Origin: Candidatus Bathyarchaeota archaeon | GTDB taxonomy: Archaea > Thermoproteota > Bathyarchaeia > Bathyarchaeales > Bathycorpusculaceae | Direction: 5' to 3' | Length of the DNA stretch: 64,000 nucleotides | Assembly: GCA_963715865.1 (NCBI GenBank) | Contig: OY970280.1 | Span: 640,001-704,000 of the forward strand | Shown: positions 25,499-33,029 of the stretch, piece after piece | How the letters are laid out: every line of letters begins with the position of its first letter | Position numbering within the stretch: the stretch's first letter is position 1 | The notes under the pieces: model-generated | What the model saw: only the letters and a program-made list of their open reading frames with translations | Told to the model about the DNA's origin: nothing | Database searches by the model: none | Translations under genes and position numbers: made by a program

Positions 25499-26155
25499 AT
25501 GACCATTAAAGTGACAAGAAACCTGAGTCAAGCCGCAAAAAACCAGGTCAAAGACCTCATCATCCAAACGGCAAAGCAGGAAAAACCCGAAACCGCAAAA
25601 CAACTAATCGCCCTAATGCAAGAACACCACGACATACCGCCCGAACAATCAACCGACCTGATTGGTGAACTGGAAAACGAAGATCGCCTACACTTCACAA
25701 GGCAGGGACCGTCAACACCCGCATCCGCACCCGCATCTGCAAAAGAATATGTTTTCTCAAAACAAGCCACATGGTACTGGACAACAATAGCCCTCGCCAT
25801 AGCCACAGCAATAGCCGTGTTCACCATTCCCGAAAACGCCGTCCCATTAGTTTACCTGCGCTCTGCGCTCGGCATCATTTTCGTCCTGTTCTTGCCCGGC
25901 TTCGCATTCATAAAAGCCATGTTTCCTACTAAAGTGCCACTCAAAACATCTTCAGAAAACACGGACACAACAGAACGGATGGCACTGAGCCTCGGAATGA
26001 GTCTGGTCCTTACTCCTATAGTGGGATTGATATTGAATTACACGCCCTGGGGCATTAGATTAACACCCATAGTCCTCAGCCTTCTCGCACTAACAGTCGT
26101 CTTCGCAACAGCGGCAATAATCCGAGAATACCAAACAAAACAGAATCCAACCTAA
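25499..26155 (+). CDS. DUF1616-like membrane protein
   Basis: LRSALGIIFVLFLPG...ERMALSLGMS...GLILNYTPWGI. Confidence 0.85.
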   Translation: MTIKVTRNLSQAAKNQVKDLIIQTAKQEKPETAKQLIALMQEHHDIPPEQSTDLIGELENEDRLHFTRQGPSTPASAPASAKEYVFSKQATWYWTTIALAIATAIAVFTIPENAVPLVYLRSALGIIFVLFLPGFAFIKAMFPTKVPLKTSSENTDTTERMALSLGMSLVLTPIVGLILNYTPWGIRLTPIVLSLLALTVVFATAAIIREYQTKQNPT

Positions 26156-28069: not shown

Positions 28070-28171
28070 CGTTAATTCAGGTTCTGTTAAGTTGGTGTGG
28101 GATTTTTCTCGGTGTTAAGTTTCGTGGGATACGGATTTTTGCGAGAATGCCACTGTTAACTTTCGTGGGAT
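28070..28171 (+). repeat. Left 102-bp end with three TGTTAAGTTTCGTGGGAT-like repeats
   Basis: Copies at 28085-28103, 28113-28130 and 28154-28171. Inverted homologue of 32928-33029. Confidence 0.9.
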
Positions 28172-28281
28172 AACTAAGTTTAGTAGCCAAAAGCGTAAAT
28201 TCACAATATATGATTCTATGCAAAGTTTTATGAAGGAAAAGAGAAGATTAATTTCTTGGTGTAGTAAATTGATAAGTTGTC

Positions 28282-28614
28282 CTAATTTTCTTCCCCGCCT
28301 TTTTCTGATTCCTTAGTCTCTTTGCCCTCAGAATCTGCAGTGGCATTTTGTTCACCTTCGGCACTTTCGCCCGCACCCGCATTTTCGTCTTTTCTCTTTT
28401 CCTCGTCTTCGTCCTCTTTCTCTTCGTCCTCATCTTTCTCTTTGCCCGATTCTTCGTCCTCTTTGTCATCTGATTTCTTGGGTTGCTGCTGGGGCTGTTT
28501 TTGCTGTTTTTGCTGTGAAGGCTGTGGTTGTGCTGTTTCATCACTGCCTTTCGGCTTTATTTCAGTCACTTTTGGGGGCTCTTCTTTCGATTCGTTTGGT
28601 GGGTACGAAAGCAT
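28282..28614 (-). CDS. Acidic/Gln-rich low-complexity (likely disordered) protein
   Basis: QPQPSQQKQQKQPQQQ followed by DDKEDEESGKEKDEDEEKEDEDEE. Confidence 0.55.
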   Translation of the reverse strand: MLSYPPNESKEEPPKVTEIKPKGSDETAQPQPSQQKQQKQPQQQPKKSDDKEDEESGKEKDEDEEKEDEDEEKRKDENAGAGESAEGEQNATADSEGKETKESEKGGEEN

Positions 28615-28735
28615 GTACCGCTGGGATGCGCTTAATTATTTAAGCGAATCCGAGTAGTTGATTTAGGAAAGTTTTAAATTAGTTGGGTGCCAATCTTACT
28701 GTGTAAGATATTTAAGTCTTACTGGATGGGAAAAC

Positions 28736-29197
28736 ATGACCTTAAGCTTGGGATACTTGACTGCTAAACAAAAAATGATCTGGGACCTAAAAAGCAGAGG
28801 ACAACAAGAAGCCAGCATCGCAAGAAAACTCAACGTCACCCGCCAAACAATTCACAGTGTCCTCGACACCGCCAACCTCAAAATCGGCGAAGCCCTACAA
28901 GAAGTAGCAGAAATCAACAAAATCGAAGTCGAAACCCTCGACCCAAACAGAGGATTCCTCAAAGGATACAGCAACCACTTCAAAACCCAAGCCTTCGTCA
29001 CCTTCTCAGCCAAAAACGGCATCCAACTCTGGTACAAACACGAAGGCGACTGCGAAAAATGCCAAAAACTCCAAACCTGCCGAGAAACCCTGCTCTCCGA
29101 GGCAAAAGACCGCAACTTCCTACTGTTAGATGATACGAGCAAGATTTTGCCATCCAAATTAGCAGAAGCCCTATTCACAAAAATCACCGGTGAATAA
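28736..29197 (+). CDS. HTH transcriptional regulator with C-terminal Cys cluster
   Basis: LTAKQKMIWDL...EASIARKLNVTRQTIH (HTH), then HEGDCEKCQKLQTC. Confidence 0.8.
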   Translation: MTLSLGYLTAKQKMIWDLKSRGQQEASIARKLNVTRQTIHSVLDTANLKIGEALQEVAEINKIEVETLDPNRGFLKGYSNHFKTQAFVTFSAKNGIQLWYKHEGDCEKCQKLQTCRETLLSEAKDRNFLLLDDTSKILPSKLAEALFTKITGE

Positions 29198-29199
29198 AA

Positions 29200-31473
29200 A
29201 TGGGTATGCGTAAAAGATTTAGGGATTTTAGAGATTGGTGTCCCCAGCCGCCAGATCGTCTGCCTACAAAACTGAAACATTATTCTGCTCCAATTGCCGT
29301 TGTTCTCTCTGTCACGCTTTTCTTGGTTTCATTCTCTGTGTTTTTCTCAAGCTACGTTTTCCATCCTTCTATGCCACAAGTACCCCTGCCAATAGTTAAC
29401 GTAATATCTTCATCGACTGAGCCTCCAGCGTTGAACTGGGTCTCGACGTTTGGAACGGGTCTTAGCGATTCAGCTTCAAAAGTGATTCAAACCAGCGACG
29501 GCGGATACGCAGTGATAGGTACATTAGGAAACGGCTATGCACCGAGCACCGCGATGCTTGTCAAGACCGATTCCTCTGGAAAAATGCTTTGGAACCAAAC
29601 CTACGATTACTTATACAGTGGCATTGCTGTGGTGCAAACAAGCGATGGAGGATACACTATAGCGGGTAATGGCAACGATGGCGGCTTCATGCTTGTCAAA
29701 ACTGATTCAAAGGGCAATGCAATATGGAACCAAACTTACACGGTTTCTTACCAAGGAAACAAAGGTGGAGACGCCTTAACTATGACTCAGACTAGCGATG
29801 GCGGCTACGTTATAGCTGGCGCTTGCACGCCATATCTTTTAGGTGAAGGGTCAAATAACGCGTTTGTTCTCAAGACGGATTCGTCGGGGAAGATGCAGTG
29901 GAGCAAGACCTATGGAGGGTCAGGAATCGACTTTTTCCGTTCAGTGGTTCAAGTCAGTAATGGAGACTATGTTTTGGCAGGTTGCACAACCTCATTTGGG
30001 GCAGGAGGTTTTGATGCTTGGCTAGTAGAACTTAACTCATCTGGTAATCAACTCTGGAGCAAAACGTATGGAGCAGGACCCACGTCCAATCCAACACAAC
30101 CACAAACGGGAACAGTGGGCGATGATGAGGCAAACTCGGTAGTGAAAACGAGCGATGGATTCGCTTTAGCGGGATATACCTATTCCTTTGGTTTAGTCGG
30201 CGCTAAAAACGCTTGGCTTATAAAAACCGACGCTTCAGGCATCATGCAATGGAACAAAACATACGGTGGGCAAGAGCAATCTGCGGCAAATTCACTTATT
30301 AAAACAAGTGATGATGGATTGGCGTTTGCTGGTTCAACGTTAGTTAATACAAACTGGGGTCTTATTGATGATATGTGGCTTGTTAAAACTGATTCATTTG
30401 GAAATAAGCAGTGGAACCAAACCTTTGGCGGAATGACGGCTACTCCAGACACTGACATTGCGAATTCGCTTATCCAGACAAGCGATGGCAGCTTCGTTCT
30501 TGCAGGGTCAACAAACCCAGGAAGCACAAGCCATGGCGGATACTACTATGTAGTGAAAACAATGTCAGTTGAACCAAGTCCGCTTCCCACACCACAGACA
30601 GCTGGCAATGCAGTAATCAATACTGACGGTTCAGTAACGGGCACCAATGTTATTGAGCAAATCGGTAGTACCTACGTTTTAACCGCTAACATTCCCAACG
30701 GTATCGATGTCCAGAAAAGCAACATCATAATAGACGGAGCAGGCTACACGCTTGACGGAAACGGCACTGGAGGAATAGACTTAACAAACGGGGTAGGACA
30801 AGACCCAACAAGGTCAACAATTAGCAACGTAACAATCGAGAACTTGCATATTCTAAATTGTGGCAACGGAATAACTACTAATGGCGGTGGCAACGATACT
30901 TTCTACGACGATTACATATCAAATTGTACTTGGGACGCATGTATCATGCTAATAGGCGACTGTGATTACAATAACATTACGTTTTGCACCCTTAACGGTT
31001 CAAATGGCACAGAAGCAATAGGAATGGTTTATGGAGCGAATTATAATGGTACAATAACAGAAAATAACATCATGGGTGGCGTTATGCTATGGTTAAGTGT
31101 GGGCGGAAACGTTGACAGAAACTATTGGAGCGACTACTTAACAAGGTATCCAAACGCTACAGAGGTCGGTTCTTCAGGAATAGGAAACACACCATATGTA
31201 TATGCAACAGGTTATCAAGATAGTCATCCGCTAATGAAACCCGTCGCAATTCCGTTAAAAGGCTCAAGCCCTGAGTCTATACCTACGTCGTCTTCTTCAT
31301 CTGCGTCGTTTAACACTTTGTTCATTATAATTGGGGTGGTAGTTGCATTTGTTATTGTTGCCGCAGTGGTTTTCTTAATGTTTCAAAAGAGACTGAAAAC
31401 TAAAACGAAAAATCCACCAACTACACCGCAGAACTCTACCTCAGTTTCCTCTGTTCAAATATTCCAAAGATAG
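29200..31473 (+). CDS. Membrane-anchored surface protein: N-terminal WCPQP peptide, TM, ~7-blade beta-propeller, right-handed beta-helix, C-terminal TM
   Basis: Seven TSDGGY..AG...LVKTDS.G...WNQTYG repeats, Asn-rich NVTIENL/NITFC/TITENNI coils with a NYWSDY motif, and a C-terminal TM followed by KRLK. Confidence 0.85.
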   Translation: MGMRKRFRDFRDWCPQPPDRLPTKLKHYSAPIAVVLSVTLFLVSFSVFFSSYVFHPSMPQVPLPIVNVISSSTEPPALNWVSTFGTGLSDSASKVIQTSDGGYAVIGTLGNGYAPSTAMLVKTDSSGKMLWNQTYDYLYSGIAVVQTSDGGYTIAGNGNDGGFMLVKTDSKGNAIWNQTYTVSYQGNKGGDALTMTQTSDGGYVIAGACTPYLLGEGSNNAFVLKTDSSGKMQWSKTYGGSGIDFFRSVVQVSNGDYVLAGCTTSFGAGGFDAWLVELNSSGNQLWSKTYGAGPTSNPTQPQTGTVGDDEANSVVKTSDGFALAGYTYSFGLVGAKNAWLIKTDASGIMQWNKTYGGQEQSAANSLIKTSDDGLAFAGSTLVNTNWGLIDDMWLVKTDSFGNKQWNQTFGGMTATPDTDIANSLIQTSDGSFVLAGSTNPGSTSHGGYYYVVKTMSVEPSPLPTPQTAGNAVINTDGSVTGTNVIEQIGSTYVLTANIPNGIDVQKSNIIIDGAGYTLDGNGTGGIDLTNGVGQDPTRSTISNVTIENLHILNCGNGITTNGGGNDTFYDDYISNCTWDACIMLIGDCDYNNITFCTLNGSNGTEAIGMVYGANYNGTITENNIMGGVMLWLSVGGNVDRNYWSDYLTRYPNATEVGSSGIGNTPYVYATGYQDSHPLMKPVAIPLKGSSPESIPTSSSSSASFNTLFIIIGVVVAFVIVAAVVFLMFQKRLKTKTKNPPTTPQNSTSVSSVQIFQR

Positions 31474-31600: not shown

Positions 31601-32015
31601 AAGCATCTTGCAGACAAGGATTTTGAAAGATTGAAATGGAGAATCGGCTGGGCGCTTTCGGAACTGGATGAGCTTAGCAGGAAGCTGCTTGAGGACGGCT
31701 TGGATACGGTTGCCCGCTTTATCAGGAACTCAGCTAACTACATGGTTACGTTTGCGAAGCTAGCTGTGAAAGAGGTTTGCATTCCCATCACGAATAATCT
31801 CGTTGAGCGTTTGATGGGTGAGATAGCTAAGCGCATTAAGCATAAGTGGATGCATTGGAGCACGAGGGGGCTGGAGAATCTGCTGAACATTCTTTTGGCG
31901 AGATACTGCAGTAGACGCGTCTACGATGAAATGAAAGAAAGATACTTAAGCCCAAACACCACACAAATCCAAATAGCGATAACGTAGGAAAGCTAGCCGA
32001 TTAGGAGACACAACC
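31601..32015 (+). mobile_element. ISH6-like transposase C-terminal fragment with possible right end
   Basis: ITNNLVERLMGEIAKRIK...WSTRGLENLL. The 5' portion is absent. TTAGGAGACACAACC after the stop may be the terminal repeat. Confidence 0.7.
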
Positions 32016-32909: not shown

Positions 32910-32927
32910 CTAACAACTTAATGAATT

Positions 32928-33029
32928 ATCCCACGACACTTAACATGGAGAAAAACACCGAGCAAAACATCCCACTAAACTTAACGGAAAAACCCATCCC
33001 TTAAGAACTTAACAGAACCTTAATTCACA
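32928..33029 (-). repeat. Right 102-bp end (inverted copy) with three repeats
   Basis: Copies at 32928-32945, 32969-32986 and 32996-33014. The reverse complement begins TGTGAATTAAGGTTCTGTTAAGTT. Confidence 0.9.

Follow-up and report, generated by a model that had tools for sequence, protein, structure and literature searches.

A candidate two-gene signalling module in archaea that pairs a cysteine-knuckle helix-turn-helix regulator with a peptide-bearing membrane partner

How might an archaeon pass an event at its membrane on to a promoter? To our knowledge, archaea have no sigma factors, and few routes are known that couple membrane events to transcription in them. The question is raised by two adjacent genes at positions 28736–31473 of a 64,000-nucleotide stretch of a Candidatus Bathyarchaeota archaeon genome (contig OY970280.1 of assembly GCA_963715865.1, positions 640,001–704,000; hereafter the window). 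The first encodes a small helix-turn-helix (HTH) regulator with a cluster of cysteines, and the second a surface protein whose N-terminus carries a short W-C-P-containing peptide ahead of a transmembrane (TM) segment. The original prediction, made from the sequence without database searches, took them for a sigma/anti-sigma-like pair. The analysis described here leads us to a preferred reading, to which we give a slightly better than even chance, in which the pair represents one instance of a two-gene signalling module conserved in archaea, with the regulator docked through the peptide to a membrane-anchored anti- or co-factor. Pairs of this kind are common among Bathyarchaeia and methanogens, with the regulator almost always lying directly ahead of its membrane partner. 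In the literature searched, no paper links proteins of the DUF1673/MGWCP type, to which many of the methanogen partners are related by their N-terminal motif, to a regulator, and the coupled regulator-partner module has not previously been described there.

The layout of the locus is compact. The regulator gene (28736–29197, + strand, 153 amino acids) ends with a TAA codon at 29195–29197 and, as originally read, the partner gene (29200–31473, + strand, 757 amino acids) begins with an ATG at 29200, 2 nt past that codon. A GGTGA Shine-Dalgarno-like site for the partner, read from the sequence (29189–29193, +), falls within the 3' end of the regulator gene, 6 nt before the partner ATG. The partner, a two-TM surface protein, starts with MGMRKRFRDFRDWCPQP, and its longer N-terminal stretch, MGMRKRFRDFRDWCPQPPDRLPTKLKHYS, leads into a hydrophobic span some 25 residues long. 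Between M3 and this span, ATG, GTG and TTG are absent and only CTG is present, which rules out a start-codon artefact as the source of the long N-terminus. Residues 1–28 (29200–29283, +) have a net charge of +5, which bears out the basic peptide ahead of a TM helix that had been claimed, and include W13-C14-P15 (29236–29244). The host genome, complete at 2.35 Mb and assigned to Bathyarchaeia, contains the regulator in single copy and one pair, and a scan of it for other proteins with W[C/h][P/R/Q/H] followed by a TM segment returned this partner as the sole match. An RGWLH motif, which stands at the C-terminus of a reading frame of 131 amino acids, is unrelated.

The first test of a module is whether its two parts travel together. 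When 401 sampled Bathyarchaeia genomes were searched with a profile, 129 proved to hold full-length regulators, the largest number in one genome being 7; genomes assigned to other classes of the phylum hold them too, and several genomes carry 2–7 paralogous pairs. Downstream DNA was available at 29 close loci, and at every one of them the gene that follows encodes a WCP-peptide protein, starts −23 to +6 nt from the regulator stop and specifies an N-terminus of the pattern M-x-[IL]-R-K-...-[WY]-C-P-[QE]-P...LK[RQ][YH]S-x-P-I-A, then a TM segment. Spacing among relatives ranges from −32 to +10 nt, ATGA overlap being the commonest arrangement. A broader survey of about 100 further loci allowed 109 unique regulators to be tabulated. 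Among these, 73 combine the Cys triad of the window regulator with a membrane protein that has [W/F/A]-C-[P/R/Q] in a basic pre-TM peptide, and 12 have neither the triad nor the peptide Cys, their partners carrying GW[ILVF]P[KQE]xP. The triad is found with a downstream protein lacking the Cys in seven cases (four in a clade with '..VIRPP..' partners and three followed by different genes) and with no adjacent partner in eight, all of one clade, NLGRCKICPDKKQC; a single regulator retains two of the three cysteines (CCW) beside a Cys partner. The remaining eight either lack both the cysteines and a motif-bearing partner or come from loci where too little DNA follows the regulator. The expectation of a consistent succession, with this regulator family first and WCP-peptide proteins of varied ectodomain next, is thus upheld, both at the 29 close loci and in the 73 of 109 with triad and Cys peptide.

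Several individual loci in this survey deserve description in their own right. In one metagenome-assembled genome (MAG) locus, a Cys-type pair with an RRFCPEPP partner (L026:5967–8650) directly precedes a Cys-less pair with an RGWVPNEY partner (from L026:8796), and the two module types therefore coexist in tandem. A Cys-less regulator at L044 has its partner close by, encoded on the opposite strand. Regulator and partner are in frame and separated by a single TAG at L064 (G081:C25:1275–1730, − strand), where the read-through frame would span 416 amino acids, and the same in-frame layout occurs at L041 with TAA. Two single called proteins, P0174 (247 amino acids) and P0234 (231 amino acids), each hold the regulator as far as its Cys knuckle, then a stretch that looks frame-shifted, then the GLCRKPP or MGWCPNSP head of the partner; errors of assembly or gene calling are a more probable origin than genuine fusion. 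Two nearly identical Cys-less regulators of one genome, L120 and L121 (G709:C1:1604474–1608123 and 2151060–2154709), are each followed at −4 by a gene for a secreted or anchored protein that has no GW[h]P and only a brief MTAQANVLGRLRK head, possibly a further divergence step of the module.

If the peptide is the constant element of the partner, it should be conserved where the rest of the protein is not, and it should remain in the cytoplasm. W-C-P is invariant across 17 diverse partner N-termini in which the mean column identity is 30%, a conservation that in these sequences far exceeds chance. In an alignment of 163 pairs, the anchor C is present in 149, the preceding W in 134 and the following P in 140. 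The window partner itself has D-W-C-P at residues 12–15, ahead of the TM segment, and the Gly of the MGWCP motif is absent. Across 84 pairs, the region preceding the hydrophobic core has a median length of 27 residues and a minimum of 18, the net charge is +4 before the TM segment versus 0 after it, and the motif lies about 15 residues from the TM segment. Given this median length and charge split, the N-terminus fits a signal-anchor with its N-terminus inside and not an ordinary cleaved signal peptide; cleavage of the latter kind is what the original prediction had named as a ground for its own refutation. Among close relatives, identity is 79.5% between regulators and 57.7% over partner residues 1–30, whereas 275 of 378 pairs of ectodomains have no BLASTP similarity; at least six ectodomain classes are represented, including PQQ propellers, SBBP propeller plus beta-helix, and several of no known type. 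The peptide is kept while ectodomains are swapped.

In the window partner, the first TM span (about residues 30–54; 29287–29361, +) is a hydrophobic segment that we read as an uncleaved signal-anchor, the topology being inferred from the charge distribution. The extracellular part that follows (29362–31290, +) is predicted to consist of an SBBP/CylK-like beta-propeller, with DNA repeats at 29482–30560, and then a NosD-like right-handed beta-helix region. The two domains originally proposed have not fared equally: the propeller is backed by matches to SBBP NF047494 (3.7e-9) and the CylK beta-propeller (3e-12) and by five DNA repeat units, while the beta-helix is backed only through L004 and L026, relatives of the same ectodomain class in which NosD/Beta_helix models exceed the Pfam cut-off. 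A second TM segment (about residues 698–722) and a basic, Pro/Ser/Thr-rich cytoplasmic tail, seen in the translation and absent from the original description, complete the protein (31291–31473, +), and many relatives share this ending. No sequence homology was found between the partner and anti-sigma families in Pfam or NCBIfam.

The pair extends well beyond Bathyarchaeia. A distant branch represented by P0152, 37% identical to the window regulator, comprises 1217 relatives that, where named, belong to Methanoregula or Methanomicrobiales. Of 68 unique metagenome loci of the P0152 type, 58 have an exact GWCP in the protein encoded next, and in 53 of the 68 that next gene starts at −4. A similar N-terminal GWCP motif had been attributed to archaeal DUF1673 proteins when the locus was first read, correctly: 'MGWCP motif, DUF1673' is recorded in the literature (PMC4158269). 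Four of ten tested P0152-type partners pass the gathering cut-off of the DUF1673 model, PF07895, over nearly its whole length (L134, L136, L150 and L155, at 57.4, 50.3, 45.8 and 41.8 bits against 30.4), and partners of the DUF1673 type have at least 40 cytoplasmic residues before the first TM segment. Others among the Methanoregula-type partners share the common head only and have different membrane bodies. The window partner gave no match to PF07895 even at E 10, its host genome contains no PF07895 match, and a profile of the partner N-termini, searched against longer proteins, retrieved Bathyarchaeial proteins only and no DUF1673. Regulator homologues also occur in Asgard MAGs, in Hodarchaeales and Njordarchaeia.

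What kind of protein is the regulator? Its 153 residues are read as a sigma70-region-4/LuxR-type HTH (about residues 8–45), a stem helix (36–60), a four-stranded beta meander (63–102), a Cys knuckle and two helices; AlphaFold2 (AF2) secondary structure of two relatives gives the same succession of HTH, long helix, four-stranded meander, short Cys knuckle and two helices. The knuckle holds the triad C106-x2-C109-x5-C115 (CxxCx5C; 29051–29080, +) within ...WYKHEGDCEKCQKLQTC...; the triad is invariant in alignment A3 and at least 90% conserved in alignment A1. No Pfam or NCBIfam model reaches its cut-off on the regulator; weak LuxR, sigma70-r4 and Tfx matches cover the N-terminal HTH only and, together with the fold, support the HTH that was seen in the sequence. 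For the family, 358 close relatives and 151 representatives were collected, and an exhaustive HMMER search of 1.84 billion representatives yielded just 151 clusters. An alternative ligand set, a zinc-binding anti-sigma (ZAS)-like HxxxCxxC reading (H-EGD-C-EK-C on the regulator), was considered and dropped because His103 is not conserved, being replaced in many relatives.

The closest known structure is EnfR (8hno), a solved Tfx-family factor; EnfR and Tfx bind promoters (PMC10570040). EnfR is the best profile match (E 3.2e-6) and the best structural match to the HTH (Z 8.8, root-mean-square deviation (rmsd) 1.3 over 51 residues). Numerous sigma region-4 domains, among them those in sigma-4/anti-sigma complexes, likewise superpose on the HTH (Z 7–8). 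A Foldseek search with HTH and head in one model returned nothing at E <= 0.001; its top match was again EnfR, at probability 0.84, in an alignment of 146 columns with a TM score of 0.30–0.40 and an rmsd of 13.9. TIGR00721 scores 21.3 bits on the regulator against a cut-off of 60.25, over residues 7–61 only, and eight relatives likewise fall under that cut-off; TFX_C (PF14601) gave no match at E up to 0.1. Since the canonical Tfx genes of other Thermoproteota have neither the Cys triad nor a downstream membrane partner, we treat the regulator family as distinct from Tfx and Tfx-like in overall architecture.

The distribution of the cysteines links the two proteins. When the motif columns are left out of the tree, every Cys-less regulator falls in the same well-supported clade, and the partners in this clade have I, L, V or F in place of the peptide Cys while W, P and the gene coupling are kept. 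In the 163-pair alignment, the top three of about 2700 mutual information (MI) pairs, after average product correction (APC), are those of C106, C109 and C115 with the peptide Cys. Secondary MI pairs involve regulator residues 74–79 and 98–101, which is weakly consistent with docking on the sheet beside the knuckle. As a sequence pattern, the joint loss of the cysteines is suggestive of the fourth-ligand idea, in which the peptide would supply the fourth Cys of a metal site.

Natural in-frame pairs provided a means of modelling the contact. Single-chain AF2 models of L027 and L034, with the stop codon read as Gly, both place N-W-C(-P) in a beta-strand (residues 168–171 and 164–166), the only other strands in the models being the regulator's four. 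The pLDDT (predicted local distance difference test) score is 86 overall and 76 around the motif for L027, and 81 and 63 for L034.

The region upstream of the regulator suggests how the operon might be controlled. A BRE/TATA-like element (TFB-recognition element and TATA box; GGAAAG TTTTAAAT, 28666–28679, +) contains an AA..TT..AT block conserved in 26 aligned upstream regions. It is followed by a palindrome with the form of an operator, CTTAC-TGT-GTAAG (28695–28707, unstranded), whose CTTACnnTGTAAG is conserved in at least 90% of the 26 loci, and by an extra half-site CTTAC 11 nt past the palindrome (28718–28722, +), conserved in at least 90% of the same regions; the flanks of these elements are otherwise unconserved. 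The centre of the palindrome lies about 25 nt downstream of the TATA centre, which is the expected archaeal transcription start, and this placement suggests that the regulator autoregulates the operon through CTTACnnTGTAAG. In the 2.35-Mb host genome there are 6 CTTACNNNGTAAG sites versus 2.7 expected; of the six, only the operon's own has the TATA element and the extra half-site, and one other is intergenic. A second palindrome of the same genome, CTTACTATGTAAG at G000:C1:1348423, lies outside the window in an intergenic region between divergent genes and is a candidate additional target of the regulator.

Taken together, these observations can be accommodated in the following model. The regulator would be a small dimer-type DNA-binding protein made of an HTH, a stem helix and an alpha/beta head. 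Its partner, translationally coupled to it, would keep its first 25–30 residues in the cytoplasm, where the [G]-W-C-[P/R] peptide would add a beta-strand to the head domain, its Cys coming to lie beside the three-Cys knuckle, where it might make up a Cys4 site for Zn or Fe-S. In this way the partner would hold the regulator at the membrane, as an anti-factor or a co-factor, and the interchangeable outer or membrane domain (propeller plus beta-helix here, PQQ propeller or DUF1673 elsewhere) would set the input of each pair. Physical binding of the peptide to the regulator is, in our judgement, likely, while a metal site shared between the two proteins is a tentative proposal to which we give somewhat less than an even chance.

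A number of observations weigh against this model. The co-loss is a single event: on the tree, the triad changes twice and the partner Cys five times, with only two independent contrasts, and the covariation cannot reach significance by a sign test. The MI signal depends on the same single Cys-less clade. Moreover, the clade L054/L068/L069/L070 keeps the triad though its ..VIRPP.. partners have no Cys, and with the orphan clade it establishes that the triad can persist without a partner Cys. The proposal of a fourth Cys from the peptide gains from the peptide Cys being gone exactly where the triad is lost and from the leading MI pairs, and loses by the single event and the VIRPP clade. The eight NLGRCKICPDKKQC regulators have no adjacent partner, the triad-bearing regulators L076, L080 and L101 are followed by other genes, and the partners of the Cys-less regulators L120 and L121 have no motif. 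As for docking, the co-folding that had been suggested does place W-C in a strand in two read-through relatives, with a motif pLDDT of 63–76 and only six paired alignment rows, and the 1–3-residue linker of the constructs may itself bias the outcome. Finally, the model is a computational reading throughout, in which the palindrome's role as operator, the choice between sequestration and activation of the regulator, and what each pair senses are all inferred.

Other explanations of the same data were weighed against it. The module might be a cytoplasmic redox or metal switch in which the Cys3+Cys1 site is the sensor, the partner a mere anchor and the outer domains irrelevant to signalling. The CxxCx5C spacing matches that of the last three Fe-S ligands of WhiB-like proteins, the hosts are anaerobic, the peptide is conserved whatever the ectodomain, and among the partners there are small polytopic DUF1673 proteins that expose little on the outside; yet the Cys-less clade, which retains the gene coupling and a well-conserved GW[ILVF]PxEP peptide, shows the module working with no thiol chemistry, and where one genome has paralogous pairs whose large ectodomains differ, distinct external inputs are the easier explanation. 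We regard such a switch as improbable. Alternatively, the regulator might gauge the amount or insertion of its own surface protein through free peptide, as a feedback or assembly checkpoint with no external signal, and the tight translational coupling, the single pair in the window's genome and the full apparent operator at the module's own promoter alone would all suit it. A checkpoint of this kind, however, leaves unexplained why so many unrelated surface proteins should each have a dedicated regulator, and why orphan regulators exist; other targets of the regulator may exist as well, and we consider this explanation distinctly improbable.

The remaining alternatives dispense with the peptide-regulator contact or with signalling altogether. 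Cys-Pro dipeptides are haem regulatory motifs in other systems, and W-C-P, at its fixed distance of about 15 residues from the TM segment, is placed as a topogenic signal might be; regulator and partner could then be co-transcribed regulator and cargo, with the motif serving in targeting, insertion, modification or haem binding. A general targeting signal is contradicted by the presence of only one such protein in the window's own genome, a Cys-Pro haem motif is at odds with the CR and CQ variants that lack the Pro, and the peptide sequence tracks regulator clades, its Cys being gone where the triad is gone; the predicted docking of the peptide on the regulator in two AF2 models also speaks for contact. 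The chance that the proteins do not touch therefore appears slim. That the motif is functionless in the mature protein, as part of an ordinary cleaved signal peptide or through a wrongly assigned start codon, is scarcely credible: a basic N-terminus followed by a hydrophobic span is what Sec signal peptides have, but the region before the core is long even at its minimum, it is more conserved than the rest of the partner, no alternative start precedes the TM segment, the span of about 25 residues fits a TM helix, and the long cytoplasmic heads of the DUF1673-type partners fit no such peptide. Very unlikely, too, is a mobile cassette that carries the pair as cargo, with the HTH protein working for the element and not in cellular signalling. 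The pair is indeed flanked by inverted ends, each about 100 bp long and containing repeated 18/19-bp units (28071–28173 and 32926–33028), and a transposase-like fragment lies at 31631–31987; the repeat unit is nevertheless absent from 131 related loci, no matches were found in phage or plasmid collections, and the pair is conserved in many different contexts in two phyla.

The surroundings of the pair are of some interest in themselves. Each inverted end has three TGTTAA[GC]TT-N3/4-[TG]GGGAT units, and the 5-kb segment between them contains an acidic open reading frame (ORF), the regulator-partner pair, the transposase-like fragment and two small ORFs. The arrangement could represent a mobile cassette or an array of binding sites. 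The acidic ORF (28282–28614, − strand) is divergent from the regulator and encodes 110 residues of extremely acidic, low-complexity sequence (KEDEESGKEKDEDEEKEDEDEE...); its DNA is a degenerate 18/27-nt tandem repeat (family D4). Just past the partner, a 118-amino-acid ORF (31631–31987, +; …NNLVERLMGEIAKRIKHKWMHWSTRGLENLL…) resembles a C-terminal fragment of an insertion sequence (IS) transposase. Farther upstream of the module, 25499–26155 (+) encodes a DUF1616 membrane protein (PF07760, 4e-31) with a soluble N-terminal extension.

The preferred reading, that of a peptide-docked signalling module, would join in one system an HTH family that has no Pfam model and the MGWCP/DUF1673 proteins, both without a described function. 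The module is present in about a third of the sampled Bathyarchaeia genomes and in more than 1200 Methanoregula/Methanomicrobiales-type proteins, and DUF1673 would gain a concrete, testable role. The reading makes predictions for biochemistry, namely a 15-residue peptide ligand and a DNA operator, and tractable methanogens would offer an entry point to signalling in the uncultured Bathyarchaeia.

How does this module compare with known systems? With the extracytoplasmic function (ECF) sigma/anti-sigma pairs it shares an adjacent, presumably co-transcribed regulator and single-pass membrane partner, variable outer domains and several paralogous pairs per genome, a cytoplasmic N-terminus of the partner as the proposed binding element, and cysteines at the presumed interface. 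The ZAS anti-sigmas RsrA, RslA and ChrR belong in the same comparison, with the difference that the three cysteines are here on the regulator, not on the anti-factor. Also in contrast with the ECF pairs, the regulator has no sigma-2, its second domain being an alpha/beta head, and the partner element is a peptide of about 15–30 residues instead of a helical anti-sigma domain of about 90. The sigma/anti-sigma-like arrangement of the original prediction, drawn by analogy with SigI/RsgI, thus describes the adjacent genes, the membrane partner and the variable ectodomain well and does not extend to the domains themselves; neither protein matched the RsgI anti-sigma domain or a SigI-type model in Pfam or NCBIfam. 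Tfx and EnfR (TIGR00721, PF14601; 8hno, 1nr3) resemble the regulator in their length of about 150 amino acids, sigma70-r4-like HTH, long helix and C-terminal alpha+beta domain, while the sequence match is confined to the HTH. The DUF1673 proteins resemble the partner in their N-terminal [M/L]GWCP ahead of TM segments, while the window partner has W-C-P only and a wholly different body.

LytTR systems (HdrRM/BrsRM) have been proposed as a separate prokaryotic sensory class that is also found in some archaea (PMC6193735), and like the module proposed here they are two-gene operons of a transcription factor and a TM inhibitor, autoregulated through repeats in their own promoter (PMC6193735). Their DNA-binding domain and membrane proteins are unrelated to those of the present module, their repeats are direct and not palindromic, and they have no Cys motif; a Pfam scan found no LytTR domain in the regulator. 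Closer to the proposed chemistry are proteins in which cysteines from one or two chains hold a metal. WhiB-like proteins ligate a [4Fe-4S] cluster through C-Xn-C-X2-C-X5-C and bind sigma region 4; the C-x2-C-x5-C part of this spacing is present in the regulator, which has no upstream fourth Cys and no Whib Pfam match, and the first ligand would here come in trans from the membrane protein. Metals shared between chains occur in the zinc clasp of CD4/CD8 with Lck and in the complex of HIV Tat with cyclin T1, the latter with 3+1 ligands. It is a doubtful but conceivable extension of these parallels that a metal latch of three regulator cysteines and one peptide Cys forms a general and hitherto unrecognised archaeal route from membrane to transcription, a third class beside ECF and LytTR systems; if true, it would explain the unexplained expansions of DUF1673/MGWCP proteins in methanogens.

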